Shown piece after piece: positions 11 to 53,964 of a stretch of DNA of 64,000 bases. The first letter of the stretch is position 1; each line of letters opens with the position of its first letter. Source of the stretch: Chiloscyllium plagiosum (lineage: Eukaryota). The position numbers and the translations under genes are program-made. The DNA lies in NCBI RefSeq assembly GCF_004010195.1, contig NC_057718.1, forward strand, positions 92,206,044 to 92,270,043. The letters are read 5' to 3'. The notes beneath the pieces are model-generated. The model searched no databases. It was not told the DNA's origin and saw only the letters and a list, made by a program, of their open reading frames with translations.

Positions 11-138
11 TCCTGATGAAGGGCTTTTGCCCGAAATGACGATTTTACTGCTCCTCGGATGCTGCCTGAACTGCTGTGCTCTTCCAGCACCACTAATCCA
101 GAATCTGGTTTCCAGCATCTGCAGTCATTGTTTTTACC
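11..138 (+). mobile_element. Penelope-like element 3' end/pseudo-LTR (family A) beginning with a hammerhead motif
   Basis: ctgatga-a-gggc-tttt-gccc-gaaa followed by ctcggatgctgcctgaactgctgtgctcttccagcac...ccagcatctgcagtc. The same sequence forms the 3' end of the GIY-YIG-encoding copy at 43561-43690. Confidence 0.85.
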
Positions 139-711
139 TATCCTTATGCAATGCACAGTGAATGCATCCTGATTCTGTGGATTCCTAATTGTAAGGTTGC
201 GTCAATCAGTGCTGGGTGAACTTAAGTTAAATTCAATGTTGTTGTATGAATTGCATTCTGAAAATAAAAAAACATGAAACGAAGGAGATGCATCTCAAGT
301 TCCATTAACTAGTTGTTCAGGGTTATGTCAGATTTTGCAGTTAATTAAGCCTTAGCAAGGGGTAACAGCAGCACTGGGGAAAATATGGGGGATGGAGAGT
401 AAGGCAATTCTTCCCTGGGAGGATGTGAATTAGCAGAGTAAACTGACCACCGCATGTGTTTTCCTTCAAAAGGGTTAGAGGAGAGCAGAGGGAAAGCTTT
501 CCTCCTTGGATACATGCCACAGAGTTGCAAAATTGGGGCTAAAAAGAAAGGAACATGTAGAGAGAGGAAGTAAATCTCTTCTGCCTGGGAGAGAAATAAA
601 TCTGCCCTGAAAATGGAAATCATTGATATGCTGATTCTCCTTTCAAGAAGATGGCGTTTAATTTAGATACATGTGAGGTGCTGTATTTTGGAAAGGCAAA
701 TCAGAGCAGGA

Positions 712-810
712 TTTTGGAAAGGTCAAAAGGGCAGTGCTGTGTTGGAGACTTGGGACTGGGATTAGGTCAGGGGAGGAAAAATGAGGAAACTGGTGAAATC
801 CACATTATTA
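712..810 (-). mobile_element. Short Penelope-like internal fragment nested in CR1
   Basis: ggtcaaaagggcagtgctgtgttggag...gaaactggtgaaatc aligns by eye with 42220-42300 and interrupts the CR1 frame. Confidence 0.7.
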
Positions 811-1190
811 TATACTTATACTTAACGGGAAGGTACTGGGGTGTGTTGCTAAACAAAGAGACCTTGGAGTACAGTTTCAATTGGTTGAAAGTTGAGTCGC
901 AGATAGACAGGGTAGGGAAGAAGGCATTTGTTATGCTTGCCTTTATTGGTCAGTGCATTGAGTGTAGGAGTTGGGAGGTCATATTGTGGCTGTACAGGAC
1001 ATTGGTTCGGCCACTTTTGGAATATTGCATCCAGTTCTGCTCTCCCTGTTGCAGGAAGAATGTTGTAAAACTTGAAAGGGTTCAGAAAAGATTTACAAAC
1101 ATGTTGCCAGGGTTGGAGGGTTTGACCTATAGGGAGAGGCTGTACAGGCTGGGGCTGTTTTCCCTGGAGTTTCGGAGGCTGAGGGGTGAC

Positions 1191-1499
1191 GGGTTGTAAG
1201 TTTGCTTGCTGAGCTGGTGGATTTGTTTGCAGACGTTTCATCATCATGCTAGGTAACATCATAAGTGAACCTCTGGTGAAGCATTGGTGTCCTGTCCCAC
1301 TTGATATTTATCCACCTGTGGTGGGTGATATCATTTCCAGTTCTGTTGCTGAGAGGTTGGTAAATGGATTCCAAATCGATATGTTTGTTAATGGAGTTCT
1401 GGTTTGAATGCCAGGCTTCTAGGAATTCCTGTGCGTGTTTTTTTTTAGCCTGTTCCAGGGTGGGTGTAATCTCCCAGTCAAACTGGTACAAAATCTCAA
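1191..1499 (-). mobile_element. Penelope-like element 3' fragment (family C) with 13-bp TSD
   Basis: gctgaggggtgac is duplicated at 1178-1190 and 1500-1512. The minus frame reads FDWE...AQEFLEAWHSNQNSINKHIDL (GIY-YIG C-terminus), followed by a degenerate hammerhead core at 1232-1265. Confidence 0.85.
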
Positions 1500-1709
1500 G
1501 CTGAGGGGTGACCTTATAGAAGTTTATAAAATCTTGAGAGGCATGGATAGGGTGAATAGTCAAGATCTTTTCCCCAGCGTAGGGGAGTCCAAAACTAGAG
1601 GGCATAGGTTTAAGGTGAGAGGGGAAAGGTTTAAAAGGGACGTGAGGGGCAACTGTTTCATACAGAGGGTGTTGTGTGTGTGTAGAATAAGCTGGCGGAG
1701 GAATGGTGG

Positions 1710-1825
1710 AGACAAAAAGATGCTGGAATCCAAGGTACACACGCAGGAGGCAGGAAGTACATAGCAAGCCAGGCAGCATCAGGAGGTGGAGAAGTCAACT
1801 TTTTTGGTATAACCCTTCTTCAGGA
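1710..1825 (-). mobile_element. Penelope-like pLTR fragment nested in CR1
   Basis: gatgctgga...aggcagcatc...cccttcttcagg is the reverse complement of the pLTR unit. The CR1 sequence aggaa(g)tg(g/c)tggag is repeated imperfectly on both sides. Confidence 0.7.
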
Positions 1826-2139
1826 AGTGCTGGAGGCTGGTACAATTACAATATTTAAAAGGCATCTGGATGGAGAGATGAATAGGAAGGGTTTAGAGGG
1901 ATATGGGCCAAGTGCTGGCAAGTGGGAGTAGGTTAATTTTGGATATCTGGTCAGCATGGCTGAGTCTAAGGATCTGATTCCATGCCGTACACCTCTACGA
2001 CTCCATCAATGAGGGTAAAAACTTTCACGTGCCTTAGTAGCTTCTCTGGTAGAGCACTAGCTTCCAAGAAAGACTTGGTAGTCCGAATCTCAGTCTAAAA
2101 TCTCATGCCAATTTTGCTTTCTTAAACATGTTTTTTTGT

Positions 2140-3430
2140 TGTTGTATCGCGGCTTATTGATTCTGCTGTCCAGTCTGCCGGGTAGATCACCTTGCAGTCA
2201 TGGACTGGAAGCCAGGAATGTGAAAAGCAATTGAGATCGTCAATAGCTGCATTCAGAAAGGTTACAAAGTCCACAGACGAGGCATCCCTACCTTCACGGT
2301 TATGTGACGGTGGGGCTGGGAAAAGCAGGAAAAGATATCAATAAGGGAAAAGATTGAAAAAAAATTGTTCCCTGCACTTCAGATGATTTTCGACTTTGCA
2401 CGTATGATATTGTTTAAGGATTCTTGTCGGAAGTGCGGATGCTATCAGACCGCTCGGTGGTGACAATAGATGGTACCGCAGAAATATTCAATATAAAATA
2501 AAATCATTGTGGAGCAGTACCTTAACATTTTGCGCAACAACGTGGACAAAGCCTCTTTCAGCGCACCCATGAATACATTGAATTTTTCTCTTCCCCCGGA
2601 AGTCATTTATTTTGTCTGCAGACAGCTGCAGAGTTTGGACGTCTCTGGCATTTGCAGCGTACTTGGCATGACTGATGAGGCACCGAGTCTTGCTTGTTCT
2701 AACTAGGGCTCTGCTTTGTTTGCGCTCCAAGTTGCTAAAATAAGCTGGAACAAGAAGCTTATTTGAATCGGTCTGGAGTGAAATTTGAAGTCGCCCCATC
2801 AAATGAGCATGGGATGGCATTATGGTGGGTTTGCGGTTATGCGGCTTCAACTTAGTTCTAGGACTGAGGGTCAGACACACACACACACAATTGCAGAAAT
2901 CGCAAAGACAGTTTAGCCCCCCCCCCCCCTCCTTTCAGGAGCATTCCTGTACCCAAGCATCTATTTTGGAAAAAATTGTGTTCTGAATAATCTACAACAT
3001 TATGAAAAGAAAAAGCTACAGATGCACAATTCTGATTAATTCGAAGGCAACAGAGTTTTTAAAACAAATTTGAACGCACCATAATAGCTGTCAAAAATAC
3101 AGAAACGTGATAAAATATTGATGTGTTTACGTTGATTTTAATAAGTATAGCTTTCTATTAATACCGGCATGTGTAAACATAAGTGAAATAGAAATAAATG
3201 GAACATAATTAACGCGATTCATCAGCATGGCAATAAAATTCACACATTAACCTGACAGATTCTGAGATTTCTCTTCCGTGACAAGTTGTGAAATATGACT
3301 GTCGGTTTTGAAGATCTGCCTGGACGCGAGAAATAAAACATACGGCAGGCTTTGTATTGAGTTTTGAGTTGTCCTGCAGGAAAGCACTGATGAATTATAT
3401 GTCCTGCAAATAGAGTACATAGCGTGTCCT
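2140..3430. promoter_or_regulatory. CpG-retaining unique region (candidate promoter or enhancer)
   Basis: About 27 CpGs by manual count in 2141-2902, against strong CpG depletion elsewhere. No repeat similarity seen. Includes (CA)n at 2875-2889 and C13 at 2917-2929. Confidence 0.5.
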
Positions 3431-5536
3431 CTACCACACAAAATAGCTGCATTGGTATGTACAGTTTTATTTTAATTGAGTGGGGATTGCAACATTTACA
3501 TCTGGGGCAACAAAATGGGCTTTGGCATAAATCACCAGAGTATACCTCAAGGAACCTAGGGGTTCCTACTTCTTTGAAGTGAAAATGACAGCAACTGAGT
3601 AGTGTGTGATGTTTCAGCAGAGAAATATGGACTATTACATCCATCCTGCTCATAAAGACTTGAAATTTTGCACCATGTTTAAGTACTGTTAAGTGGAGGC
3701 TGATATATGTTAGTGTGGTAGCTTCTGTTAGCTTGCAGGCCAACTTGGTTGTTTTGCACTAAAATAGATGATAATGCCTTTACAGCACCCTGAACACTTG
3801 AGGTTCAGTTAAACTGAAGAAAACAAATTGTGTTGTACAGAAAATAACATCCCAGTTCTAATATGACTATTAAATACACCGAAGCATGGCCTGATGTTGT
3901 TTAAATTCAAATTTCTGATGGTCTGAAATTGAGAGAGATGGTATTTTAAACATATCGTGCTCCAACATCTGCAGATTATGATTTGCATGTGGAAATTGGC
4001 TGGTTGAATTGAATGAGGATGAATACTGTCAATCTCCCTTTCTTCATCCAGTTCCTTTAATGAAATGCTAGAGGTCAACCCTTTGTCCTTAAATTAGTTA
4101 CTATATTTTTTCCGGTTACTTTCCGGATATATGAGATGTTATGGAAAGGTCGCCATTAATTCAGCCTTTGTTGAATACAGATATCTAACACTGGTTTTAC
4201 TAAACAGTTTGAAGTAAATTAGCATTTAGGAACTCTCAGTCTGGACCTATTCTGATTATCAAGAATGTATATTTTTTTTTGTCCGTGTGAAGAGAATGCT
4301 CTTCTGCAAGAACGCATTATCTAATGTATTCAGCTTTCTGTTGCTCATTTTTCAGATGAAGCGAGCTTAATTGAGGTTGAGCTTTTAAGTTTGTAGAGCT
4401 CTTCAGCATCTCAGACAAAAAACAACTTGAGTCTTCTCATTTGTCTTGAGTATGTTTTTAGATGTGAAAAAATATTTACATTACTCTCTAAATCAAAAAG
4501 GTGCACTGCAACTATTTTAAATGGAATAATACTAACTGCTGCTACAAAGATGCAGATATAGTCAGATTCAAAGCAAGGATCAAATTCATTACTGCCTAAA
4601 TTGCTTTATTCAAGTGCTTTCATTTAAACATCCTGTGATATTTTTTTGAAGCAATAATCACATTAACATTTTTCAAGCAGATATTTTGGCAAGTAATTAA
4701 CAGTACTGTAGAGGCAGAAAATCTAAGCTGGAGTGTGAAAATGGCTGGCAGGTAGCATTTTATTTATATAAATGTGTTGCTGTTGTCAACCAGATTGTAC
4801 CTCCATCTGCAAGATTTTGTCTCCTTAAAAATGATTGTTTAATGTTTTCAATAAGTAAATGTATTAGGTTTTATTTTTAAACTATTATCAAATCACTGTT
4901 TAAATATTACATTGTGAATGCCTTTAACAGCTGTTTTAGTAGACATTCATGGAATGTATAATCAATGGAGTGAGAGTTTTCAAATATGGAACACCAAAAA
5001 GAAAGAAAGCCTTAATATCATTTCCTTAAGAGCAAATGCACAGTAATGAGATGGTCACTTGATTTTTCCCACTAGGTTGCTGTCAGACACATTTTCATTA
5101 GGTTTTCTCTTACTTTTTTATGCCAAAATTGACAAAATAAGAATATTATTAGTCACCCTCAATAATTAGTCTTGTTACTTTTTGCATCAAAGTTGATCAG
5201 GAGTAATTGATAAATAGGCAACAGTGCAGATCATAGGATCTTGTTTTGTGTGCATGACACGCTGGCCCATTAGTAGACTGATTCAAGCAGCTATGCTGAG
5301 GAAATAAAATAATGTTTGAGGTGTAATAGGCTCGTCAAAATTAATGAGCTTACCCAATAAATAAAATGAATCACCAATCAGTATGATTTGGATAAATATA
5401 ATTTAGAATAATTGCTTGATTGCATTTCTCTTAGCGGGATGATTTGACCACACACAAGGGTTTGGAATTAAGATGTCAAGAAAAGAATTAATTTGGCAAG
5501 AGGGTTATACAATGTCTCCTTTGCTCTTTCTTTCAG

Positions 5537-5729
5537 AATAAAAAGGCAAGGCATCTGAGATGCGGTCTCCTAATTATTAAACAGTGACAGTGAAGATTTA
5601 CTAAGGCATTCTGCCACTCTACCTCTGAAGCGGGTATGTGTCCCCAAATGTACCTGCCCGCAAGATAAAAACAATCCGGCATTGCTCTGAAGTCATGAGC
5701 CTAAACTGTGGGGAAGGTTCAGGCAGAAG
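5537..5729 (+). other. Putative spliced exon (alternative donors after 5633 and 5729); possible ATG at 5695
   Basis: Acceptor ctcctttgctctttctttcag|. Donors CGG|gtatgt and AAG|gtaaat. Lies in unique, CNE-like flanks. Confidence 0.45.
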
Positions 5730-8700
5730 GTAAATTTGCTTTGATCTGCATTACATCTAATTGAGTCACTGGCGATGTCTCTATCCCAACATCAAGAAAT
5801 TTGAAATTGTTAGATTATTTCACTGGGGATTAAACCTAATTTACGCGTGTTCTGCATTAACCTATTAGACAGTCTCATCTGCATTGCTAATGTGGACCAG
5901 ACAGCTGTCAGTGCTAAAGAAAAACATGATCATGCAATCCTTGAATGAATGATTTGAGCTCTGATTAGTGCTTGTGAAGTTAGCTGAACCCCAGTGATAA
6001 GGAAAAGAAATTCCCAAGTTGCCAATAGCTCGAGAAATTATCAGACTGTAGGCAAAACCCTGTACCTCACAGCTCATGGGTTTTAATCCAAGTGCAGCTT
6101 AGAGTGACAATATTTAAAGTGATGAAAATGCAATTGGACCAACTAGGGCAGCGACAGATCTGTGGGAGGACTGAGCAAAGCATTACACTATTACAGTCTA
6201 ATTTCTAATGAACTTTGTCATGTAAATGCTAATAGGTGTTTCTGTAGATATTTTCACATTAAATGGAAAATCAATTTTGGGTTTTAAAATCCATAGATAG
6301 ATTATAACTATTGAGAAAAGACACAAAGCAAGTCTATATCTTTATACATATATAATTTATGTGTGTATTTCTATATACTAAAATGTATTTCCATACATAT
6401 TATTTTAATAAACCTTTTTGCCACTTGATTCTACATTAGAATCAGCAGTCACGGAAAGGTGAGTTTTACAAGCATTAGGCAGGAATGAAATTCTCCACCA
6501 TCATCCTATTTGAGTAAAATGTTAGATTTGTGTTGGCCTTGCTGATCCATCAGTCTTTGTGTACATTGTAACCAGCACTGCTGTAATCCTGAGCTTTTTC
6601 CTTGCTTCTTTCTTGAGGCTGCTGTCAGCTGTAAAAAGTAACAATGACAAGTCCCCATGAGAGGTGAAAATTTAGGGATGGTTTTGGGCTCCCAGTTATA
6701 GAGCTAGTAACCAATTTAATCCTATTAACAGCTCCAAACAATGGCCATTCCCACTGTAATACGGCAGGAATTGGTACTTGGTTTCTTTGGATCAAATCAA
6801 TGTTATCAAATGTGAGTGTGTGTGTTTGTTTGCATGTTTGCACATTTTCAGCCATCTACCAAGACAATAAACCATATAAATCTGAAAGGTTGCACTAATA
6901 GGTCAATATTTATTTGTTGTTTAGACTCCATTATCTGGAAGTAGGACTTGTTGATTGAACAAACTTTACATAGGCGATTTATCTCCCAACTCTTGGGATC
7001 CTGCTGTTCTACTTGTAGGATCAGTACAGAGCACTTGATTCTAGCAAAAGAATTGACATTTGGACAATTTAGAATGAGAGCACTTGTAGTCAAAAAATAG
7101 CATCCCAAGCAGGAAATGGGCATCTTGCTGGCTAAAAGATCAATGGACAATGTCAGTTTCCACTCCCTTCCCTGGACAGGAAATGAAGCAAAATTTCTTA
7201 TAGAACCAGACATGAAGGTAATAGTATTCTCTGCGTCAAAGAATTTCTTGACCATATGTCTGTACAGCTGGACAGAGAAAGAATACTTTTATTATTTCAA
7301 TTACACCCCATGCACTGTTACTGCTGTTGCTGGCCAGCATTGTGTGTTTGTTTTATACGCAGTCTGTGACCTTTTTAATAAATTCAAATGTACTCACTGG
7401 ATTGAAACTAATTGATTTTTTTTGTTTTCATTTACAGAGCAAATTACAGGTTTAATAAGTTGTTTCTCATGTGTATGTAAAATGATAATTTACTGGGTAA
7501 TAATTTGATTACAGATGAAATTAATCCATCTAGCATGTGTCAAGACTTTGATTTCTATAATTCTATAAACTGCTGCAAGGTTATTAACCAGATGAGACTT
7601 AATAAAAAGAGTTTGAATATATAGTCAGGACCATTATTGAAATAGCAATAGATAGTATTATACATTGAAATTATGTATGATTTTTGAAAATAAATTCATG
7701 GATAGAACTGTGCCTTGGTTTCTATACTTTGTTGAGAATGAACCAGTTCTTGCCTCTTAAAGTTAACTCTTCATTCACTGAATACTTGCCTGTGCCTTGT
7801 GTTGCATGCTTATATTTTAAATGAGTGAGAATAATATCAACAACACAACTGGGACCTACAGCTGCCAGCCCATTTACAATGTAAGATTTTTTTTTAAAAG
7901 TACCTGTTTAAAATGCACTCTATCATTATGATGGGATAAATTTCAGGAAGGCATAGGATGCAAATTCACTCTGCCGACCTCTGCTCTTGTCCCCTGGGCT
8001 CCCCCTGTGATTGACAAGAGCCAATGGAAAGCCAGTTACATCTGTGCAAATGGTTCTCAGAATACACCTCCAGCACAAAACCATCATAAACTATAGATTT
8101 TAATGGAATGAAAAAAGAAATCTTTTTTATTCTTACTTACACGATCAGGTTCTGACGGATTACAGAGAAGAAAACATTTCTTTTGATCACTGTGGGACAC
8201 TACAGCTTTAATGCAAATCCTGCCTGTTCAGTGACAATAAATTTGACAGCCTTGCAACCAAACCCCTTCATAAAAATCAAACACTACAAATAATTAATTT
8301 TCATACCTTTTTAATATTGTGATTCTGTTTATTTTTAAAAGCAAAGAATATTGTTGTTTAAACCATGGATGTTCATAACATCGATGAAAGAACCAGTTGG
8401 CAGGAATTATGAAACTCAACAATGTGAAAGAAGCTGAATTAACATCAGTACTATCATTAACCTGGGGTGTTTTAGTGATTGTGTCATTTTAGTGCTGTAA
8501 ATTATTTCAGCTATTTTGTACTCTCAAGCTCAGCCACCCTCATTATGTCATCAGCATTCACTGTTGATACAAAAATTGTTTTAGAAACCAGGACACAAAG
8601 GGAGGGGAGAATGATGCTTAAAGTTAATAATTTTATTTAACAATTTACATTTAATATGCTAATGACCAAATAATCTGTTATGAGTGCTGATGGAGATGGG

Positions 8701-8734
8701 AATATCTCCATTTTAAAACTTCCATTCTTATTTT

Positions 8735-8975
8735 CAAATCAATCTGTGGATTCAATCTTCCCTATCTCTGCTCCCTCTTCCACCTCGACAGCTCCTTCTT
8801 AAACAGATATCTGCATCCCTATAATTCTGGCTTAACCAATTTTAACTGGTCCACCCTGTATAGCAGTGCCTTAAACTGTGAAAGTGCAACTTTCTGGAAT
8901 TTCCTCCCTAAATCTTTCCACTCTGCTAACTCATTAAAACACTTGTAAAATCTACCTGAATAAGTTTCTGTTTCT
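8735..8975 (+). mobile_element. Old L2-type LINE 3' end
   Basis: ttctggaatttcctccctaaatctttccactct...taaaacacttgtaaaatctacc is a degenerate L2 ORF2 end (LWNSLP...FK..LKT.L). Confidence 0.55.
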
Positions 8976-8977
8976 AT

Positions 8978-9922: not shown

Positions 9923-9924
9923 CT

Positions 9925-10165: not shown

Positions 10166-10208
10166 ACGTAAAAAGCTTTTTGTATATTTTACTATATATC
10201 AATCAAGG

Positions 10209-10434
10209 AGAAAGTGAGGACTGCAGATGCTGGAGATCAGAGCTGAAAATGTGTTGCTGGAAAAGCGCAGCAGGTCAGGCAGCATCCAAGGAGCAGGCTA
10301 ATTGACGTTTCAGGCATAAGCCCTTCTTCAGGCATAAGCCTTCCTGAAGAAGGGCTTATGCACGAAACATCGATTCTCCTGCTTCTTGGATGCTGCCTGA
10401 CCTGCTGCGCATTTCCAGCAACACATTTTCAGCT
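10209..10434. mobile_element. Inverted pair of Penelope-like pLTRs (family A) with 17-bp TSD
   Basis: Arms 10241-10332 and 10343-10434 are near-perfect reverse complements. ctatatatcaatcaagg is repeated at 10192-10208 and 10433-10449. Confidence 0.92.
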
Positions 10435-11529
10435 ATATATCAATCAAGGCCAATTATGATGTGCATGAACAATGAAACTAGCACAAAAAGATAGAATTCC
10501 ATTTTTCCCAGTCTGAAATTCCATTAACTAAATTCTCATCTGGAATTTCATTTGTCTCAATTATCTGCCAAAGAGAACTGCATATTTCACTCTACTGTCC
10601 CCTACATGTACAGCGAGGAGAATGTGCAAATAAGTTTATTTGAACTCCTAATCATCCAATAAACAATTTCCATCATTCAGTTTCTGCAAAAAAAAATGAT
10701 ACCATTGAACAGGTTCTAAGGATTTGAATGACCTGTAATGATTATTTTTCAAAAAAAACAGGATTAGTTTTCTTTTAAAATCAAGTTAGTGTTTGAATTG
10801 GGTGCCAAGCATTGAACAAAGTTAAAACTGTTTGGCATAATAGCAAACTAGAAAGAAATATGATATTTTTGCTACTATTAATGTGATCAGATTACAATTT
10901 TTTATTAGGAAGATTTGTATGCCAGCCAAGCAGGTACTAAATTAATCTTGATTTTAACCTAACTTACCCAGTGAGAAAGAGATAGGGCCGGGTCATTTGT
11001 CTGCATCGCTGCTTATTCAATTTGTTCGTCATTAAAGTTTTCTTTCACTTCATCATTCAAACAGCCTACCATATTCTGAAAATGTTGTGTGATTTGTAGA
11101 AATTGTGGTTAAATCTAATCATTGACTTTATTGTAATACAGTGTTTTGTGCACCACTTGAACTTCATTGGTGATTCTTCAATTTTGTTGGGTTTTATTCC
11201 CAACTCACATTCCGTCATCCAATAGCAAGTATAAAATTTGCTTCTGGTGTGGTAAGGCTCAGGACAATTCATTCTTATGATTCTATCAATGGTACTCCTC
11301 TCCACTTTTTTCACCAAGGCAAGTAGTCTTTGGAAATTTTCTGAAATAGGGTGCCATTTCAGAAAATGTTAATGGGAATTTCTCCTCCTGCCCTCACCAG
11401 CCTGCAATTTTCTTCCTATCCAATTTAATGAACAGAAGGAACTCAAGCTGGCAAGCACAGAGGGAGAGACACTGATTGGCATGCCCTTGCTAAATAACTC
11501 AATTCTATTGTCAAAATTATAATTTTTTT

Positions 11530-12230
11530 TCAGCCTGGTTTCAGTGGTATCACACTTTCCTCTGAGACAGAAGGTCATGGGTTCAAGGTGTACTCCAAAC
11601 ACTTCAGCACATAATCCAGGCTAAGTCTCCAGTGGAGTACCAAGGGAGTACTGCATTGTTGTACTTGCCATTTTTGGATGAGACATTAAAGTGAGATTCT
11701 ATCTACCTTCTCAGGTGCATTTGAAAGAGCATATGACCCCAGAATCCTTCAGCCAACATCGCTAAATGGAAATTATCTGGGCACTACTTTATTGCAGTTA
11801 GTAAGATCTTGTTCTGTTAAAATTGATAATTTAATTTTCCTACATAACAGCAGTGACTTTATTTCAAATGCATTGATTTGGGTGGCAAGGTGGCTTGGTG
11901 GTTAGCAGTACTGCCTCACAGTACCAAGGACCTGGGTTCAATTCCACCCTTAGGTAACTGTGTGGAGCTTTCACATACTCTCTTTGTCTGTCTAGGTTTC
12001 CTCCCATCTAAAGATGGTGGATTGGTCATGCTAAATTGCCTGTGGTGTCCAGCTAGGTGGATTAGCAATGGAAAATGCAGGGTTACAAGGATTGGGTGGG
12101 ATGCTCTTTGGAGGATTGGGATGGGCTGAATGGCCTGCTTCCACCCTGTAGGGAATCTGATTGGCTGTAAACTGTTTTGTGGTACTTTAAGCTCATGAGA
12201 AATATTATGTAAATTTCTTTCTTTCTTCAG
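11530..12230 (+). mobile_element. tRNA-headed Deu-domain SINE (SacSINE1-like) split by an HE1 SINE
   Basis: A/B-box-like tggtttcagtgg and ggttcaagg. Deu core ttggatgagacattaaagtgag...ctcaggtg. The tail resumes after 12160 and ends in (tttc)n. Confidence 0.65.
11880..12160 (+). mobile_element. HE1-type V-SINE, degenerate
   Basis: tRNA head tggcttggtggttagca...gggttcaattcc, partial V core, CR1-like tail. Confidence 0.85.
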
Positions 12231-12746: not shown

Positions 12747-12877
12747 AAGAAAATGAGGACTGCAGATGCTTGAGATCAGAGTTGAAGAATGTGGTGATGG
12801 GAAAGCACAGCCGGTCAGGCAGCATTCGAGGAGTAGGAGAATCGACGTTTCGAGCATAATTCCTTCATCAGGAATGA
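12747..12877 (-). mobile_element. Solo Penelope-like pLTR unit (family A) with 10-bp TSD
   Basis: cttcactttg at 12737-12746 and 12878-12887. Hammerhead core on the minus strand at about 12844-12871. Confidence 0.88.
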
Positions 12878-13384
12878 CTTCACTTTGTACAAGGAAACAT
12901 TTCATTTGCAAGATCTTTCATTTGCATGATCTTTTAAATTTATTGTGTGGTGTGGGAGTTAGCTACATATAAAAAATTTGCAAATTGGCAGTCTTAGGAA
13001 ACACTTAAAGAATCATTTAATTAAGAACAGAGCTTTAATTAAACAGAATGTTTCTTAACTAAAAGATACAATATGCCAATTTTTACTGGAACAACTATCA
13101 ATAAGTTTGCAACTGTAAAACACACAATACACTATAGCATGAGATTTGAATATACCTTGCTGTCACATTTATGACAATGTTAAGACTACAACTGGGGTAA
13201 TGCACATCATAGAGATTTATAACTAGATTAGTGAATATGGTGGCAACATTTTATGTACTATTTTCAGTAAAATTATGCCTTCTTGTCAGATTATGGTTTT
13301 AAAATAACTTGGTTCTTTCAGTTACCAAATTTTGCCACTGCTGGTATTAATGGTGGACATATGTGTTTTTGTGATATTCCCATT

Positions 13385-15518: not shown

Positions 15519-16249
15519 GTGAGCAGTGTCATTTGTACTTCTGTCTCCCTCTCAGAGAAAACAAAAGAAGATAAACATTCTTTTGCTCTTTTTATGTGAT
15601 ATTTATAATTTTGAAAATGATCCAGTGGTGTACTAGGTTAACAACATTTTTATTCTAATTTTCAATGTTAAGGTTTATTCTATTGTTGCCTGCTTGCAAG
15701 CAAATAAATCAGTGTATAGCAGGAGTGAAGCTGCTCATTAACAAGGTAACCCTTTCCAATATGACAATGCAATTACAGGGCATGAGATATCACAATGTGG
15801 ACCCCTGTAGTTGCTCCAAGGGTGTGGTCATACGTCAGTGAGTGAAAGCAATGATTTGAAACAATTTGGTGCTATTTCAGCTAGCACAGACCAGCAAACT
15901 GTCTGGCAGGGTGGATGCCTGTTATTTTAGTTGAACTCCAACTTCAGTAGTTAGGGCTGGACAAGTTGCAGTTTGCATATTTTGCACAGTAGTTGAAATA
16001 CAATTAGCTTGAGGGCACGTTATCATTTTTTGTATCATTTCACACTTATACTGATTGTGTTCATTCATATTTCCTAATGGAAGTGAAAGCATTATTATCA
16101 TTGTACCTGATAGATCAGGTTTACTCATGCTGAATGTTATAAGCATGTTTATCCACAGTTAGTCTGAAACAGCTTGCCTGAATCTGTAGGGATAATTTTT
16201 TTAAAAAAGTGACAACAGCAGATGTGTGAAATTTAAGCAGAAATTACGA

Positions 16250-16320
16250 GGACAAACCAGGCAATATCATTGGCAAGAGAAAGAGTTCATATTTCGAGTT
16301 GATGACCTTTCATCAGAACA
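16250..16320 (-). mobile_element. Penelope-like pLTR fragment (family B) with hammerhead core
   Basis: Minus strand gttctgatga-aaggtcatcaactc-gaaatatgaactc. Homologous to 27550-27630 and 41820-41895. Confidence 0.6.
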
Positions 16321-17218
16321 GGATATATGGAGTGAGCAGAGGTTGTTTAGGATCTGAAATATCATTGCAGAGCCCACTTTTAAACAGTTGTTTTTACATG
16401 AGATGTAGAAGGGCTCCTTCAACAAATGCTTTAGCTAGCTGCTGTGTAGGTAGAGAATTGTATACATACATTTCCTCTGAGTGGTGCAGAAAGGAGTACA
16501 AGTATCATAAAAGCTCTTTTTTCAAATTGATACAAATGAATCCTTGCAGGAATTTCCAATGTGCGCAGGTTTGAACAAGAAGTCAGATAATGGAGCAAAT
16601 TGAAGTTTGTGTACTTGGCTGTGGACATCCTTTCAACTAAAACATCTTGAAGCCATTACATGTCAAGAAAATTCACTTTCTTTTCAATTTGTGCATCTCT
16701 TAAACTAACTGCATATAACTCTAAGTAAGGAATTCCAATATTCTAAGGCACTTTATATTAATTTCACAATTCACATTTTATTCTTGAGTCCTCAATATTT
16801 TTGATGCTCAACCTGTTAAATATAATCAACTCACTAAATCTGTAATTCTTATCAAAGCTATTCCTCAAAGGTTGATCATGTGATGTTTCATCATTGTAGT
16901 TTTGGTTTGTAATACTTGATTTACTTTGCAATATTTAGTAATGGTTTCCCTGTTATTGATTGTCATGCTTTATGCTTTTGTGCCATCAGCTGTCATTTGA
17001 AGAGCAGTGAGAACTGCAAGACCGCACTTAAGCAGGCAAAGAAAGCAGCCAGGCTCAAACCAGCAGCATTTAGGAGATGCATCCTCCATTCCTGGATGCT
17101 TGTTGATAATCTAGGTTCGATCAAGTGATGAAATGCCATTAAGTACATTTAACTTGAAAGATATCCCACAGGATGTACAAGGCACAATTTCAAGAATTCA
17201 TAAAAGTTGGAAGTATTG

Positions 17219-17525
17219 GCGGGGCAGCACGGTGGCTCACTGGTTAGCACTGCTGCCTCACAGCGCCAGGGACCCTGGGTCGATTCTAGCCTTGGGCCAC
17301 TGTCTGTGTGGAGTTTGCACATTCTCCCCATGTCTGCGTGGGTTTCCTCTGGGTGCTCTCGTTTCCTCCCATGGTCCAAAGATGTGCAGATCAGGTGAAT
17401 TGGCTGGGCTAAATTGCCCATAGTGTTAGGTCCATTGGTCGGGTAAATGTAGGGTAATGGGTCTGGATGGGTTACTCTTCGGAGGGTCGGTGTGTGTGGT
17501 TGGGCCAAGTGGCCTGTTTCCACAT
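17219..17525 (+). mobile_element. HE1-type V-SINE; its tail (gggaatctaatcta) is displaced to 18067-18082 by a CR1 insertion
   Basis: A box tggctcactgg, B box ggtcgattct, V core gtctgtgtggagtttgcacattctcccc...ccaaagatgtgcag. Confidence 0.93.
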
Positions 17526-18066: not shown

Positions 18067-18094
18067 GGGAATCTAATCTAATGTTATACAATAA

Positions 18095-27632: not shown

Positions 27633-27639
27633 TCACAGC

Positions 27640-40468: not shown

Positions 40469-42092
40469 ACCACGTTTAAAGTTGATAAATCACAGCCACA
40501 AAGCACCATTACAATGATCCAGGTCTCCAGACAGTTGAAGAACCAGATATAGCCTCAAAGACATTTGACGGGACTTTTGGAAGTCCCAACTCATTGACTA
40601 CCCAGTAATTGCTCCAGCAATTTTAACTTCCAGTGGGCAATTTCCATTTATTCGGAAGCCTTTGAAAAAATCTACACATCTAAGTTAGCATCGGAAACCT
40701 CAAATGGTTCTTACACCTAATAGTTAGTGAGGAAAAGTCAGAGGATTAAAACTTCTGTATATCCTGGCTAACTATAAGGTTGATTCTCACTCCCATAACT
40801 TACACTAACCCCCATTCACCTGTGCTAATTCCCTCTCAATACCTGACCCTCCAACCTCAAATACAACCTGGTTATCTGATGAAACCCTGTCACCTTCCCT
40901 CCTCACCCTTACCACTTCTTTCTCTCTTCTTCAATGATTCCCTGGCAGTGAAAAGTTGAAGCTAACATGTAGGCTTTCCTGAGAACCCATTAGTATATTG
41001 TCAGAAGTCTTTGAGAGAAAATTAACCTGCTGATTTACTCGATAGACTGTTGAGATGTGGTAATTTAGAACAGAGCACAATTTTACATTAGTTTCCTTTG
41101 AGTTGAACACAGTATTACATTAAGAGAACCTTTTACCTTTTAAAAGAAACCCACTGAACTACAGCTTTTACAATTTCACTATTAATGGGGAGAAAGGCTT
41201 GGGACAGAAAAGTCAGCCAGCATTAAGTAGAATAGTTATTTTGTTTCAGAAAATGTCACATGTTCTCCAAATTTTTGTCATCAATGTTGGAGTGTCGAAA
41301 TAGCAAAAGTGCTGCCTCAAGATAGGCAGACTGCCTAGTGTGGCCCCCATTCTAGTCTAGACTTCAAAGGAAACAACCAGAAAATCAAGGCTACTTCCAT
41401 TGTAACACCACACCTGAATGTTTTTATTTGGATTCTTTTGCTCTGCAGATCCTTGGGTTTTCAAATTCTTCCTTTATTTTGTAACGTTTCTTTCTGGAGT
41501 CGGAGCACAATTTGATTTGGCAGCAGAATAAATTTGCTTGGCCTTTGGTCTTGTGCCATGTTAATGGATCCCAATGACAATAATGATAGAAACACTAAAT
41601 TTATTCAGCATGCCTGGACTACAAAGAGGAATATATAGGTCAGGAATGTGCTGTTTTTGGGGATAAAAATAGGGGGAAGGGGATGGATTTCAGCTGACCA
41701 GCAGCCTGCCCTTCAAGGATTCTTAAAACTTTGCTTAATCAGAAATTGGTTTAGTTAATGTTTTGGGTTCCCTCAGCAGCCAACTAAACCAATTATTACA
41801 AAAACATACATTTCTGAAGAAACTCAGTGTGTCTAGAAGCATCCGTGGAGAGTAAGCGAGTTAACATTTCAGGTCCAGTGACCCTTCTTCAGTACTGATT
41901 GAGGTTAGGAAAAGGTTGGGAAAAACGCTGAAGTTGGAGTGTTAGGAGTAAACAGTAGGTGGAGATGGAGCCCAGAGAGAGAATAGCAGTTGGACAGACA
42001 AAAGATTAGGTCATGGTCAGTCTGGGAGAATCAATAGCTGCTAATTGGGAACATTAGTACCTAACAATGTGTAGGTTGCAGTAGCAGTTGTA

Positions 42093-42868
42093 GTCGAAAA
42101 GTGTGGCGCTGGAAAATCAGAGCAGGTCAAGCAGCATTTGAGGATCAGGAAAGTCAATGTCTCGGGCATAAGTCCTTCATCAGGAATGTGGAAGGGAAGG
42201 AAGATGGACTGGTAGGACAGGTCAGGAGGGCAGTGCTGAGTTGGAGGGTTGGATCTGGGATGAGGTGGAGGAAGGAGAAATTTGGAAACTGGTGAAGTCA
42301 ATGTTGATGCCATGTGGTTGAATGAGTCCCAAGGTAGAAGATGAGGCATTCTTCTTCCAGTTGTCGGGTGGCTAGGATTTGGTGGTGGAGGAGACCCAGG
42401 ACTTGCATGTCCCTCGGGGAGTGGGAGGGGGAGTTGAACTGTTCAGGCACAGGGCAGTGGGGTTCTTTGGTGCATGTTCCCTGAAACGTTCCACAAGTTG
42501 GCATCCTGTCTCTCCAATGCAGAGGAGGCCACATCGAGAGCAACGGACATAGTAGATTAGGTGGGTGGATACACAGGAAAATCTCCGCCTGATGTGAAAA
42601 GACCCTTTGGAGCCTTGGATGGAGGTAAGGAGGGTTGTGAGCACAAGTTTTACACCTCTTGCGGTGTAAGGGAAGGTGCTGGGTGTAGAGGGTGACTTGG
42701 TGGGATGGGGGGGTGTTTGGCCGTGGACCCAATGAGGGAGTCACGGAGAGAATGGTCTCTGTGGAACGCAGATAGGTGTGGGGAGGGAAATATACCTTTG
42801 GTGGTGGAGTCTGATTGTAGGTGGCGGATAATGCGCTGTATCCAGAGATTAGTAGGGTGGAAGGTGAC
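42093..42868 (-). mobile_element. Penelope-like element (family A), left inverted arm with GIY-YIG remnant
   Basis: IQGSKGSFHIRRRFSCVSTHLIYYVRCSRCGLLCIGETGCQLVERFREH and RQLEEECLIFYLGT; pLTR at 42093-42186. Confidence 0.9.
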
Positions 42869-43690
42869 GTCTGGGATAGAACTGCCTTCGTTAGGTACAT
42901 ACTCCCGGCCAACCCACCCTCTACACCCGGAACCTTCCCTTGCTGCTGCAAGAGGTGTAAACCTGTGACCGCCCCTCCCACCTCAACTCCATCCAAGGTC
43001 CCAAAGGATCCTTCCAGACCTGGCAAAGATTTTCCTGCACATCCAAACACCTCATCTACTGTGTCTGTTGCTCTTGATGTGGTCACCTTTACATCGGGTA
43101 GACAGGATGCCAACTCACGGATGTTTCAGGGAACATCTCTGAGACACACGCACCAAATAACCCCACTGCCCTGTGGCTGACCACTTAAACTCCCCCTCCC
43201 CGAAGGACATGCACCTCCTGGGCCTCTTCCACCGCCTAATCGAAGCCACCCAATGCCTGGAGGAAAACTGTCTCATCTTCCGCCTTGGGACCTTTCAACC
43301 ACACGGCTTCAACATTGACATCATTAGTTTTCAAATCTCCCCTCCCCTCATCTCATCCCAGATCCAACCCTCCAACTCAGCACCACCCTGTTGACCTGTC
43401 CTATCTGTCAATCTTCCTTCCCACCTATCTGCTCCACCCTCCCCAGCAACCTATCACTATTACCACCCCCACCTGCATCCACCTTTGACTTTCCCACCCA
43501 CCTTCTCCCCAATCCCACACCCAGCCCTCGATTTATCTCTGAGCCACTGTCCCCCAACACTCCTGATGAAGGGCTTAAACCCAAAACATCAACTCTCTTG
43601 CTCCTCGGATGTTGCCTGACCTGCTGTGCTTTTCCAGCACCACACTTCTAGACTCTGACTCTCCAGCATCTGCAGTCCTCATTTTCTCTC
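42869..43690 (+). mobile_element. Penelope-like element (family A), right arm
   Basis: PGTFPCCCKRCK, ADHLNSPS...LEENCLIFRLGTFQPHGFNID; pLTR with hammerhead remnant at 43561-43690. Confidence 0.9.
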
Positions 43691-44718
43691 AGGTTGCAGT
43701 AGTAGCCCATGTGACGAAAAGGCTAACTGTGTGGGGATTGGGAGAAGGATGTGGAAGAAGGTGCTCAGGTCTTGTAATGAATGAACTCGATATTGAGACC
43801 TGAAGGCTGCAGGGTCCGCATAGGGAGAAAGCGACGCTGTCCTTCCAGTTTGCGTTGAGCTTCACTGGAAGACCGCAACAAGCTCTAGATACAGATATTG
43901 GCCAAGGAACATGGTGGTGTTTTTATGTTTTTTTACTTGTTAAAACAAGTGGCGGGTGGTTTACTTGTGTATGGAAGTACACCACACTGTTGCGAAAGTG
44001 TAACCCCAAGGAGAGCAGCAGCTACCATGCCTACTTTGCCCAGGTTTGTGTAGTACGAATGTAACCTAAAAGATGGCTGCCATAGGAAAATAGAGTTAAA
44101 TTTAAACACCTCCCAACTCCACAGGCAAAATAGGCCGTCAGCTGCTAGATGAGACAGAGGGCCTAATTCAGGGCTAGTCTCAGACTTCTCGATTCTAGCT
44201 TCCAGCATGCTTTCCTATCCTAATATCCCTGGCATTCTCCTGTTGGTCACTATCTAATGCCCTCTGGTTGAAGATGCATTCAAGTAAGATTGAGCTGAGG
44301 ATTTGATTGAGTTCATGGTTTTAAAAAGCCTCCAAGGCTCATTTCATAGACTTAGATACGAAGAAATCACCCCCTTGAACAAGAAAATAAAAGGCTTGTG
44401 AAATACTTCCTCACTCTGAGAAAGAAATAAAGAAATTATTCGGAAAAAAAGCTACCATTTCATGAAGAAGATTTTCCTGCTCGTCCACCAGCCAATATTG
44501 AAACATCTGAGCACAGGAAAGAAAAGGAAATCTCAACCAGTTGGAACATGTCCAGCAAAGAGCCTGCCTGACTTTCTTGTAACGATTGAAGTGGGTGTTT
44601 AATCAGGTGGGTTTCTTTACAAAGCAGCCTTCCGGTATGCCTGTTTCTCCTTCCCAATGTGTCCAGATTGTGTTTGTTATTCACTGGCGCAGGGACAAGA
44701 AAATTTCCCTTCTTGTTT

Positions 44719-49061: not shown

Positions 49062-50750
49062 TGGAATCATAGAATAGTTACAGCATAAACAGAAACCATT
49101 CAGACTTCTGAATCCATGTCATTTCCATGTAAGAACAATTTAATTCGTCCTGTTCACTGTGCTTTCCCTATAGTTCTGGAATTCTTCACTTTTCAGATTC
49201 ATATTCAATTCTCTTTAAAAGCCATCATTGAATCTGCCTCCAACACGCTCTCAAGCTTGCAATACAGATTACAACCACTGGCTTCCTGATAAACTTTCCT
49301 TTGTGCCGACTTTTGTTCTTTTGCCAATCATCTTAAATCTGTATCTTCTGGTTCTTGACCCTTCAATCATTTGAAACAATTTCAATCCACACTGTCCAGG
49401 ACCCCTCTTGATTTTGAAAACATCTATCAAATCTCCTCTCCAATTTCTCTTCACTAAGGAAACAACTCCAACTTCTACAATCCAATTTCCTCATCCACAT
49501 AACTGAAATCCCTCCCTTCCAGAACCATGGGTGGCATGGTGGCACAATGGTTCGCACTGCTGCCTCACACCGCCAGAGACCCGGGTTCAATTCCCACCTC
49601 AAGCAACTGTCTGTGTGGGGGTTGCACATTCTCCCCGCGTCTGCATGGGTTTCCTCCGGGTGCTCAGGTTTCCTCCCACAGTCCAAAAAAACAAATGTGC
49701 AGGTTAGGTGAATTGGCCATGCTAAATTGCCCGCAGTGTTAGGTGAAAAGGTAAATGTATGGGAATGGGTCGAGGTGGGTTGCTCTTCAGAGGGTCGGTG
49801 TGGACTTGTTGGGCCGATGGGCCTGTTTCCACATTGTAAGTAATCTAAATTCTTGTCAATCTTTTCTGAATCCTGATCAAAGCCTTCACATTTGTCCTAA
49901 AATATTGTATCCAGAACTGGATCCAATATCCAATTGAAGCTAACACAGAGTTTTATAAAAAATAATTGGTGAGAAAAAGAGATTTGCTGTTAAAGGTATT
50001 TTTCTTGCACTTATCAGGACAAATGCAAGAATACCAAATTGTAAAGGGTACACCAACTTATACTGCATGCAAAAAAGTATACTGATTGATTGGTTGAATT
50101 CTGATGGGATAAGGCATTCAATGGAGAATATACCAAGGAACAGGTGCATCATAGGCTTCTTATAAAAGTTCATCAATGTTTCCCTTATCTTTTGTATTCT
50201 ATGCTTCTACTTCCGAAGCTCAGATCCTGCAAATGTTTTAAACTATCCGCCCTGTCATCTTTAGCAATGTGCGTTTATATACCCCAAGACCCATTTGCTC
50301 CTAGCTCCATTTTAGGAATGCACTCTTTACTTTATACTACTTGTTCTCATTCCTCTTCCCAAAACATTTCACACATCTCTACATTCAATTTCATCTGCTA
50401 GGTATCCGCTCATCCCACCAACCAGTTTATGTTCTCTTGAGGTCTATCGCAATTCACACTTTAAAGTGTTATGCAAGTGTTGAAACTATTTCCCATTCAC
50501 CCAAGTCTAGGTTATCAATTTGTATTGGGAGAAATAGTGGTCATAATACTAAATCCTGGAGAATTTCACTGTTTATCTTCTTCCAATCTGAAAAATAAGC
50601 ATGTCACTCGGCCAACACTGTAAACATACTGCCCTCTCCCTTTAATTTCATGGACTTCAACTAACAAACTTATTTTGAAGCCCTTATCTTTCACAAGTCT
50701 ATAAACCATGTCAATTACTCTGATGCATACTCCCTATTACATCACCAAAC
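49062..50750 (-). mobile_element. Old CR1 LINE remnant, fragmented, with an HE1 SINE inside
   Basis: Minus RGDLIDVFKI, LDIGSSSG and DLDLGE-like motifs; tail atcatagaatagttacagca. Confidence 0.7.
49529..49848 (+). mobile_element. HE1-type V-SINE
   Basis: tggcacaatgg, gggttcaattcc, V core, tail gtaagtaatcta. Confidence 0.92.
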
Positions 50751-50809
50751 AAAATGTCAAATTGTAGAGTCATAGAGACTTACAGCACAGAAAAGTCCCT
50801 TCAGCCCAT

Positions 50810-51613
50810 TGTTACAACACGGAGGTGAACCCCTCTGTTATTTAAACCCAACCACCCAGAAAAGCTCACCTCACCTCATCATCTGTTAAAATATGAGTGA
50901 CAGAGAACTCCCAAATTCCACTATTTAAAGAAAATAATGTCAATTTATTTTTAAACTCTAAAAGTGAACATTAAAGAACAACTATTCACAACTCTAAGCC
51001 CCCTCACAACTCTAAGCCCCCTTTCTCTTAACTGCTTATTATCTGCCTCCAACTCTATAACAATATGCAGTTCCAAAAAAACACTTAGTAAAATTACATC
51101 AGCTTTATTTTAAAACCACACGGCCATTGTCATTTTCTGTGTCTTTCTTCTTCCAGCTGAGGATCTCCCTGGGTCATCTTCTTTCTTTTTATTGTGGGTA
51201 TGTTTCATATGAAAAGATACTTTTGATAGCCAGTGTTTCCTAATTTCTTGGAGAGCAAGATGTTAGATCTGCAGGCTTTTCTGTCTCAATGGCAATTTTC
51301 AAAATGTCTGCATTTTTATATCCCAAACATCAGATCATCTCATTGGTTCGATGTTGGCAAAACAATAAATTCAAACTTGATTGGGTTTTAGTATTCGGGG
51401 GCATAATTTAAATTAATTGGTTAAATTCGAAGTGTTGTCAAAACAGCAATCAAAACTCAGGTATCTCTTCACTACCAAATATTACATCTTTTAAATTTTC
51501 CAGTACATCCTGGTACTGCTATCTAGTCATATCACAGGTACTTGTGATCTCTCAGTTCAGAACAGCACTCACTCTGTCTTAAAGATACTGTACACTTTTT
51601 CAATGTCACAACA
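50810..51613. mobile_element. Solo LTR (804 bp) with 4-bp TSD, inserted in a CR1 tail
   Basis: TGTT...AACA termini with ccat at 50806-50809 and 51614-51617. The flanks rejoin as CR1 tail cttcagcccat|caagtc. Internal 18-bp duplication at 50986-51021. Confidence 0.82.
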
Positions 51614-52739
51614 CCATCAAGTCTATGTCAGTCAAAGACAAGCATCTCACTATTCCAATCCCATTTCCCAGAACTTGGACCATAGCCTTGCTGTTTGTTG
51701 TATATAAAAATTATTCAGTGTTGATTGTAGAAAAGTTGATCAGGTTATATAAAAATTGTTAGGATGATAAATACTGATGAGGACAGCCTGAGTCTATTAA
51801 AGGATATAGATGGGCTGATCAGTGGTAAATGGAACTCAATACAGACAAGAGTGAGGTGATGCACACAGGCAGAACAAACAAGACTAAGGGAATGTGTGAT
51901 AAATGGTAGGATCTTGCAGAATACAAAGATCAGACAAGCACCTCAATGTAGTTCAGAATGAACCAAGTCAGAGGCAAGTTACAGAAAATGACCAAGTTTT
52001 CCAATTTGTTAATCTCACATCCCATGTCAATGTTATAAGGTGTTCCATGGGAGACAGTTTACAAGACACCATCTCACATTATACAACATATCACTAGTTC
52101 TGTGCACTGACAGAATCTCACCACAGTGACAATAAGCAAGCTCATCTAGGATTCCAAAAATCTTCTCCCTGGTAGATGCTCTTAATTACAAAGCTGAAGA
52201 CTGAAAGTAATTCCATTGTCCTTACCTCTGGATCACACTATCACCTCTCTTCCATGAACCTTTGGTCTATGGTTCCACTGTGATCCTGGACCTCAGGTGG
52301 ATGTTTTGCCATCTCATTCATTGGTGTTTTTGCAATGAACATCAGCAACCCTCTGATAGACTGGATGCTCTCAGTGGATAGGAGTGTACCATAGGGGTCC
52401 ACAATCACACGGATAGCCTAACCATGGCCACTTAAGTGCCTGCAGTCTCTGACAAGTGAACAAGTGTTGGATCTCCCTCATAGTGCACTGCTATCTGAAA
52501 TTTGGGATGCACTTAATTGGACACATCTCATTTGAAAACCTGCTGGATTTGCTAAATTTAAATTATAGAAGGAAGTACATTTCAACTCCATAATCTTGAT
52601 TTGCTTAATCATTGGAGATGATTCAATTTTTGTATCCTCTCCAGAGCTCATGGATGCCAAGACCTACGCTAGGGAAACAATCACTCCATTAATACTAAGC
52701 TATGAAGCACATTACTGTAGTATAAAACAAAGGAGTGGG

Positions 52740-52960
52740 GATGGTGGAAATCTGAAACAAAAACAAAAAGTGTTGGGGAAAATCACTAGTTGTGGCAGAG
52801 TCTGTTGAGAGAAAAGCAGAGTTAATGTTTAGAGTCCAACAACCCTTTGTCAGAGCTGAAAATGACTGGGAAAGGATGGTAAGTATGTTAATGATGGAGG
52901 GGAAAGGTTGGTAGGAAGTGAATAGGATATATGGAATCAGTGCTGAGAGAGAGAGAGCAG
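52740..52960 (-). mobile_element. Penelope-like 3' fragment (family B), degenerate
   Basis: agagaaaagcagagttaatgtttagagtccaacaaccctttgtcagag is homologous to 41850-41895. Confidence 0.6.
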
Positions 52961-53892
52961 AATGTCTCACTTGTCCATGAATTAATATTGCCTGCAAAGC
53001 ATGTCTGAGTTGTGGGTCCAGAGCCCAAACCTCAGAGCAATGGAACCCATCCTAAAATAGAAATCAGGCAGAGAGTCATAAAGTGACATGATGATTGCAA
53101 TTAATTACATAGTGCATGCACAGGGAGAAGTATTGATTGCAGCTTCCATCCTAATGAACACTGTTTGTAAACTGCACAACCATGAAGAACCCAGCCCCTT
53201 TACAACACTGTGTGTATTTGGTAGAACAAAAAAATCTTAGAGTCCATGAAAGTAAATAAAACATTTGTGCACTTGTCCTTCCCCCCCAAAGTACATTGAG
53301 GAAATGTTGCAACTGATGTATGAAGAGGTGGAGCTGAATGGTCAGATTCCAATCTCACACTTCTGCTGTTTCAGAGCAGCAATTGGCAGGAGCTCTTACC
53401 AAGTTATCTGCCCCTCTCAAACAAAGTATAATGTTGGCAGGGTAACCTAAAAAATAGGAGAAAAGTATTTTTTAAGGGAAAACAAAACTTGCCACAATAA
53501 ATAAATTTTAATAAATCTATCACTCATAACTCAGATAATTCATCTTTAATTGTTTCTGATGGATGACTTGTTGGAATGTAATAACTTCCTGAGCAGTTTC
53601 CCTGTTCCTCTCTTGTTTTTCCCTTTCATTGATTAAAGACAGTTGTCATGATATGGCTCAATGTGTGCTAGGCACCCTGGAATACCTATTCAAGTGAACA
53701 ATAATCACGTGTAGGTGTAGGCGGTGAATCTTGGTAGCTATTTCCTTATAGACTGGAGGCCGATCATACTCTTATCCAGTGGCCGATGTACATACACCAT
53801 TCTACACAGGGATTACTGGATCTAAACCACAAGCATGTACCTTGCTTTAAGATAAGGGCGATGAGACCACTTGTAGATCCCAGCTGTGTCAG

Positions 53893-53964
53893 GTGTGTGC
53901 TGGTGGGAAAGCACAGCAGGTCAGGCAGCATCCGAGGAGCAGGAAAATTGACGTTTTGAGCATG
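53893..53964 (-). mobile_element. Penelope-like pLTR fragment (family A)
   Basis: gtgtgctggtgggaaagcacagcaggtcaggcagcatccgaggagcaggaaaattgacgtttt. Confidence 0.8.

Follow-up and report, generated by a model that had tools for sequence, protein, structure and literature searches.

The hammerhead ribozyme motifs in a 64,000-nucleotide stretch of the Chiloscyllium plagiosum genome (contig NC_057718.1, positions 92,206,044 to 92,270,043) very probably belong to 5'-truncated, mostly decayed ends of endonuclease-bearing Penelope-like elements (PLEs), whose hammerhead probably serves the RNA of the source element and probably has no activity in the dispersed copies. The stretch, referred to below as the window, is part of a 106-Mb contig in a 3.56-Gb genome, and about one quarter of it is repetitive by comparison with loci from elsewhere in the genome. 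A preliminary description had listed 15 motif sites in the window and had attributed them to PLEs. All 15 proved to be PLE ends, with coordinates and strands as given there; the copy at 1795-1822 lies on the minus strand.

The window contains four occurrences of the two-box pattern CTGANGA-(11-27 nucleotides)-GAAAYGTH, whereas 200 dinucleotide shuffles gave a mean of 0.115 and a maximum of 1; the pattern is therefore not a product of chance. Family profiles were built on loci elsewhere in the genome and then searched against the window, where they gave 18 matches (12 to family A, five to B and one to C). Three of these had not been listed before: a family B match at 19396-19485 on the minus strand, a family A match at 53892-53963 on the minus strand, and a match at 34258-34306 on the plus strand that is the displaced tail of the copy at 33885. 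A search of the window with Rfam returned no hammerhead family at E-values up to 10 and seven weak unrelated matches, which we read as the cost of the absent stem III. The PLE ends of the window are as follows.

4 to 112, plus strand: family A end; motif 13-40, core broken at U16.1
1189 to 1488, minus strand: family C (putatively Poseidon-type) 3' fragment; GIY-YIG C-terminal remains at 1488-1288 (tblastn E 8e-21), motif 1232-1265 with G5 changed
1750 to 1827, minus strand: decayed end of family A; motif about 1795-1823 with a broken core
10209 to 10440: head-to-head family A insertion, a single event, with 9-base target-site duplications at 10200-10208 and 10441-10449
10304 to 10331, minus strand: left motif of that insertion; core retained, stem I lost
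10344 to 10371, plus strand: right motif of that insertion; core retained, palindrome and one stem II pair lost
12779 to 12879, minus strand: family A end; motif 12844-12871, core retained, stem II with 2 of 4 pairs
16228 to 16322, minus strand: old end of family B; motif about 16287-16316 with G as base 17 and 3 of 5 stem II pairs
19396 to 19485, minus strand: family B end, newly found; core broken
27536 to 27633, minus strand: family B end; motif about 27596-27625, G12 changed
28224 to 28326, plus strand: young end of family A, about 100 bases long; motif 28233-28260, the sole fully intact one in the window, predicted cut after 28260
33464 to 33554, plus strand: decayed family A end; 5' box damaged
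33885 to 34306, plus strand: decayed family A end interrupted by an unrelated repeat; head 33885-33942, tail 34258-34306
41794 to 42072, minus strand: end of family B, about 280 bases long; motif 41863-41892, core retained, palindrome changed to U.G, first stem I pair broken
42085 to 43690: inverted family A insertion of 1.6 kb, a single event, with 12-base target-site duplications at 42073-42084 and 43691-43702
42810 to 42220, minus strand, and 42996 to 43496, plus strand: coding remains on the arms of that insertion; broken zinc finger and GIY-YIG
42155 to 42183, minus strand, and 43563 to 43590, plus strand: motifs ending its arms; both core-broken
52750 to 52860, minus strand: old end of family B; motif about 52823-52853 with a broken core
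53892 to 53963, minus strand: family A end that begins within stem II and has no 5' box

The 11 core bases and the cleavable base 17 are retained at five of the 15 listed sites (10304, 10344, 12844, 28233 and 41863), and a Watson-Crick palindrome, both stems and the core occur together only at 28233-28260. The claim of more than ten hammerhead motifs was thus right about the sites and overstated their intactness. The commonest variants of all four families that we distinguish (A to C and a further family, D) carry the CUGANGA and GAAA boxes and an NUH cut triplet, with C, U, C and A, respectively, as base 17. In every family G10.1-C11.1 closes helix II and A9 is followed by one additional base, G.U forms reflecting CpG decay, and a palindrome at 15.2-16.2 (ACGU in A to C, AGCU in D) replaces helix III. 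The palindrome has been lost through CpG decay in many copies: among 60 copies of family A it reads CG in 32, CA in 13, UG in 12 and otherwise in three, and the UG and CA forms are the result of this decay and not functional variants. The stem II pairings quoted earlier (GGGC/GCCC and GGGUC/GACCU) are present, as are the stem I pairings uc/ga, aguu/aacu and ca/ug, which do covary between families; the family C motif had been given a CUGANGA box, and its sole copy in the window reads CUUAUGA.

Pairing was assessed in a box-anchored set of 189 matches from 900 kb of loci, some of which had been retrieved by the motif itself. Stem I positions 1 and 2 were paired in 84% and 86% of these matches, and the pairs differed by family, the commonest being C-G/U-A in A, U-A/U-A in B, A-U/C-G in C and C-G/A-U in D; stem II and the palindrome were likewise paired family by family. 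When stem I arms were swapped, using one natural copy per family, the family's own arm formed 3-4 of 4 pairs and that of another family 0-2 of 4. Stem II of A and B cross-pairs because these families are related, and the compensatory stem I pairs represent about three independent lineages. The family-specific paired stems of the earlier three-family scheme are supported, but A and B are related lineages and not independent families, and a fourth family is common nearby. By their anatomy and pairing the motifs bear the four marks of the minimal hammerhead ribozymes (min-HHRs) set out in the relevant passages of Cervera and de la Pena (2014, PMC4209133), and their identification as minimal type-I hammerheads of PLE ends, with family-specific paired stems, is supported at the level of sequence, cleavage itself being predicted.

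Longer copies connected the motifs to coding sequence. Upstream of family A motifs we found a reverse transcriptase (RT; Pfam RVT_1, E 3.4e-06, 27.4 bits, just under the curated cut-off of 29.6), together with zinc-finger and GIY-YIG-like sequence 5' of the motifs; the order of RT and then GIY-YIG endonuclease (EN) upstream of the motif was seen in broken copies only. Pfam GIY-YIG found no match in the decayed frames, and a PDB search with the RT fragment gave 0 matches. The RT/EN protein of family A also matches 5' of family B copies (for example, E 1e-34 in locus L059) and the profiles of A and B cross-match, so that the two are sister lineages. The family C motif follows a different GIY-YIG frame, which resembles GIY-YIG clusters (score 0.94, the family being found on about 20% of members). 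In locus L136, two C repeats are followed by a Poseidon-type frame with an ATG at the start of stem II, in frame through one stop; this ATG lies inside the motif, 28 bases 5' of the cut. Family A has a Cys motif before GIY-YIG, and none was seen in the fragment of C. Judged by the zinc finger, A and B are probably of Neptune type, and C is probably of Poseidon type, an assignment made by motifs. Two long open frames turned out to be assembly gaps.

Genome-wide, the two-box pattern has 219,275 matches, compared with 3,499 for a reversed control, and one exact intact 33-base family A motif occurs in 38,410 copies. About 3.9 core-pattern matches are expected from the genome count in a window of this size and four were observed; the flanks hold 20 in 408 kb. 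The motif density of the window is ordinary for the genome, and the locus is not, as had been proposed, densely seeded. The window and its flanks (471.5 kb) contain 133 copies of the four families. The whole motif is spanned by 75 of them, of which 36 retain the core and 13 retain everything. Family D, for which the profile search found no copy in the window, has 24 copies in the flanks and also occurs at loci L007, L020 and L108.

The manner of insertion is that of PLEs, with 5' truncation, an inverted partner arm and a tail on one arm, and two such insertions with target-site duplications lie in the window. In the 471.5 kb, 54 of the 123 A, B and D copies form 27 head-to-head pairs. The insertion at 10209-10440 is predicted to fold into a single long hairpin of about -162 kcal/mol on either strand, and motifs in head-to-head pairs would end up inside long hairpins. 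Genome-wide, 67,263 matches were counted for a tail pattern that begins at the cut, and 67,332 for one in which five tail bases are exchanged for four core bases upstream, which indicates that copies beginning at the cut site are rare and that copies span the uncut junction. Inverted-arm junctions were scored by eye for the first 100 of 692 listed. Most of these second arms begin at one point in loop II, via two bases of microhomology shared with the first arm's end; four clear and two doubtful starts fall at the cut site, compared with 0-3 at each of seven upstream positions.

To locate selection, we compared core and tail at two levels. Across copies, 37 of 907 non-CpG core cells differed from their nearest neighbours, compared with about 80 expected from tail rates (A, 13/442 versus 25.0; B, 14/203 versus 29.8; C, 3/100 versus 12.6; D, 7/162 versus 13.0), so that the core is about twice as conserved as the tail. 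This comparison fits selection on source or on inserted copies, and local alignment slightly favours the core. The excess core conservation and the covariation on which the preliminary description had made its reading depend are present in the family alignments. The second level was the two arms of a single insertion, which are assumed to have been alike at the start, so that their differences arose afterwards; 40 head-to-head pairs were used, not selected by core. Here 12 of 141 core cells differed, compared with about 9 expected from the tail and about 5 had the rate been halved. By base, the differences were 8/119 in the core and 47/785 in the tail for A/T, and 4/22 and 85/815 for G/C. There was no sign of constraint on the core after insertion in this small sample. 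Since the core is conserved across copies but decays like the tail between arms, selection appears to have acted on source elements and not on inserted copies.

What the source elements gain from the motif need not be cleavage. It could be kept for a non-catalytic job, as a protein-binding fold, as a signal for RT to stop or turn round or, in family C, through the overlap with the start codon, and we consider this unlikely while taking it more seriously than the other alternatives. Retention of the uncut junction in integrated copies and the ATG inside the family C motif would fit such a job, as would two published points: catalytic mutants left in vitro insertion unaffected in the experiments cited from Frangieh et al. 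(2024, PMC11167929), and some PLE clades thrive without canonical motifs according to passages of Craig et al. (2021, PMC8557442). In every family, nonetheless, exactly the catalytic bases are kept, base 17 is cleavable and the palindrome, in either of its two spellings, is self-complementary, which is what dimer cleavage requires and so counts against a non-catalytic role. Moreover, the anole motif does cut, in a C3- and G8-dependent manner, in the same passages of PMC11167929.

RNA evidence was taken from a poly(A) single-cell library, sampled at about 2 in 100, over the region 27700-28800. The element at 28224-28326 attracted 1,116 family reads, nearly all of which run on into unlike sequence and hence derive from copies elsewhere; on its unique flanks there was no RNA depth at this sampling of about 2%, and a second run gave no reads. 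For 2050-8900 no RNA data set was listed, an absence that carries no weight. Family RNA is present on both strands. Depth at the cut site is about 670 and continuous across it, and no pile-up of read starts or ends at the cut was listed in this one run. All eight listed A-to-G changes were higher in the motif-sense read class (seven at p <0.02) and stood at 4 to 35 times the contig level; over the eight A sites they amounted to 307 of 3,177 sense-class cells versus 70 of 2,164 in the other class. At A13, A14 and A15.1 they reached 5.1, 7.8 and 9.3% versus 0.2-0.3% in contigs, the sites lying within 28233-28320. Such strand-biased A-to-G change at core adenosines is likely ADAR editing of hairpins.

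The preliminary description had also suggested that intact copies could cut any pre-mRNA that spans them. We find very little likelihood that intact dispersed copies are live ribozymes cutting host pre-mRNA, whether in cis or in trans via the palindrome and perhaps aided by PLE protein in the germ line, and for the dispersed copies the claim is unsupported. The many exact intact family A copies and the RNA on both strands would offer a wealth of potential partners, the core is the more conserved part across copies, second arms may start slightly in excess at the cut, and a 52-base RNA around 28233 does fold into the hammerhead frame, with probabilities of 1.0 for stem II and 0.6 for stem I. 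With 60-70 bases of flank added, the stem I probability falls to 0.01, and two separate monomers (-18.6 kcal/mol) are predicted to be more stable than the dimer fold without protein (-13.3 kcal/mol). In addition, the only fully intact copy among the 15 has its nearest intact same-strand family A partner about 65 kb downstream, the core is unconstrained between arms, and the reads cross the cut. Published findings point the same way: single motifs showed no cleavage and dimers little in the passages cited from PMC4209133, and the anole motif cut only with protein, with zero RNA-seq reads beginning or ending at the site, in those from PMC11167929.

No host exon was found in the window: 143 frames on the plus strand and 133 on the minus strand (of 324 listed), all lying outside repeats and 45 residues or longer, had no Pfam match above cut-off, although short exons would escape this search. 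Six frames from flanking loci gave no Pfam match above cut-off either. Two long non-repeat frames about 200 kb downstream of the window (L142, 1-819, and L144, 1087-1491, both plus strand) are possible host exons with no Pfam match. On another contig, a 366-residue host-gene frame, which we take to be FAM43-like, lies beside a PLE copy (L107, 3839-4936, plus strand).

A broader version of host cutting would have the approximately 200,000 core-intact hammerheads suffice for trans-dimer or protein-assisted cleavage of host RNA whenever PLE protein is expressed, with hairpins and ADAR editing of A13, A14 and A15.1 acting as a host brake on a genome-wide RNA-cutting load; its prospects appear similarly slim. 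That the short copies are an independent SINE-like (short interspersed element) or retrozyme-like family and not truncated PLE ends is hardly credible. Many copies are indeed about 100 bases long and start near the motif, but RT/EN coding sequence lies upstream in longer versions of the same ends, the window shows no hammerhead units in tandem array, and the candidate for a separate 5' leader numbers only 27 genome-wide. That candidate, taken from upstream of 28233 and its best matches, was rejected as a query artefact.

Several points limit the case for a hammerhead that serves only the source elements and is inert elsewhere. The library, made from poly(A) RNA of single cells, is ill suited to capturing 5'-OH or cyclic-phosphate ends, and second arms may show a slight excess of starts at the cut. 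Four changes other than A-to-G (28280, 28284, 28285 and 28305) are also strand-biased; a semblance of editing can thus arise from a small number of strongly expressed copies, and the contigs used for comparison come from a different individual than the RNA. The arm test is small, with columns near the junction possibly misaligned. No uninterrupted full-length element was recovered, owing to assembly gaps and stops, and the two-repeat dimer in a source element is thus something we only infer.

Drawing on published PLE work, we envisage a source element with two terminal repeats in which the two motifs would pair via the palindrome and slowly cleave the RNA 3' of base 17, with binding of the element's protein probably required. 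Min-HHR cleavage is weak and seen as dimers only in the passages of PMC4209133, and protein-assisted cleavage and an internal start of reverse transcription are described in those of PMC11167929. The motif may trim or circularise source-element RNA at some stage. Reverse transcription would start about 70-130 bases 3' of the motif, on mostly uncut RNA, and would often stop early and often add an inverted second arm. The dispersed copies would be passengers, often locked in hairpins and edited, and host transcripts running through head-to-head copies would form long double-stranded hairpins subject to ADAR editing that includes the catalytic adenosines.

The motifs were next set against known systems, as these are described in the passages cited. 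The min-HHRs of metazoan PLE pseudo-LTRs (long terminal repeats; PMC4209133), which include those in the Poseidon and Neptune elements of fishes, have like ours both boxes, one unpaired base between 9 and 10.1, G10.1-C11.1, a palindromic 15.2-16.2 and a short helix I, and likewise form several consensus families per genome, mostly as single truncated copies with some close opposite-strand pairs. Unlike that set, helix II is short here (4-6 bp), and helix I of family A has only 2 bp plus a mismatch. The scale also differs, with about 216,000 core matches above control here versus about 4,000 in coelacanth and about 9,000 in Xenopus, a rough contrast because the descriptors differ. In the Poseidon element of Anolis carolinensis (PMC11167929) the start codon stands at the start of stem II, 26 bases before the cut (28 in our family C), genomic copies likewise derive from uncut RNA and no RNA read pile-up is seen at the cut; that study measured activity, help from protein and the sites at which RT starts, all of which we infer here. 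Neptune-clade PLEs carry a zinc-finger-like motif between RT and GIY-YIG (PMC8557442), as do families A and B, and PLE insertion units in the same source show 5' truncation, an adjacent inverted copy and an optional tail on one arm, as here. Penelope RNA is a major ADAR target in a lizard and in Xenopus tropicalis, linked to double-stranded structure (PMC5625713, PMC10636886); the ribozyme is not mentioned in the passages concerned, while here the A-to-G changes fall on hammerhead bases A13, A14 and A15.1. Animal non-LTR retrozymes (bioRxiv 10.64898/2026.07.22.740005) are, in the part of that preprint cited, PLE-related and hammerhead-bearing and include one from a chondrichthyan, but they form tandem arrays, whereas the present copies are scattered ends, single or inverted, with PLE coding sequence adjoining them. 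Their hallmark of tandem 50-1000-base hammerhead units without coding sequence is absent from the window. The copies also lack the hallmarks of domesticated intronic hammerheads, being multi-copy, without helix III and without constraint between arms.

Some further features of the window touch the PLE copies. The family B end at 41794-42072 abuts the target-site duplication that borders the 1.6-kb insertion of family A, and it has the orientation of that insertion's left arm. The family C fragment at 1189-1488 is flanked on both sides by 3' pieces of a long interspersed element (LINE); LINE 3' fragments, presumably CR1-like, lie at 627-2018, 17798-18130, 58129-58617 and 59724-60239. A tRNA-headed SINE-like family of about 300 bases occurs on both strands, one copy interrupting the PLE end at 33885, with copies at:

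11870-12160
17220-17440
19650-19940
24740-25050
33940-34255
35700-35940
49510-49850
59030-59370
62060-62250

Broken pieces of an LTR-retrotransposon-type reverse transcriptase and RNase H (Pfam RVT_1, RT_RNaseH_2) lie at 30422-31074, and a run of 578 N at 57530-58110. A pyrimidine run ending in AG stands 25-30 bases 5' of family A motifs (L028, 7290-7325 and 5585-5615; window, 43525-43545). It resembles a 3' splice site and recalls the intron end beside the Drosophila Penelope hammerhead mentioned in a passage of PMC4209133.

PLE expansion in whale-shark introns is already in print. No shark report of these motifs was found in the literature searched, which included two supplementary files of PMC4209133 and left most subscription journals and Repbase outside its scope. 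The present finding extends the class described in 2014 to a shark genome in which its copies are very numerous. This wealth of dated copies, numbering in the hundreds of thousands, offers a way to ask whether the PLE hammerhead cuts in cells. Both the decay seen between arms and the uncut junctions kept in the copies favour a ribozyme of importance to source elements only, and the likely editing of catalytic adenosines suggests that the copies meet the host as double-stranded RNA. Should it be true that dispersed copies cut host RNA, the importance of these elements would be much greater.

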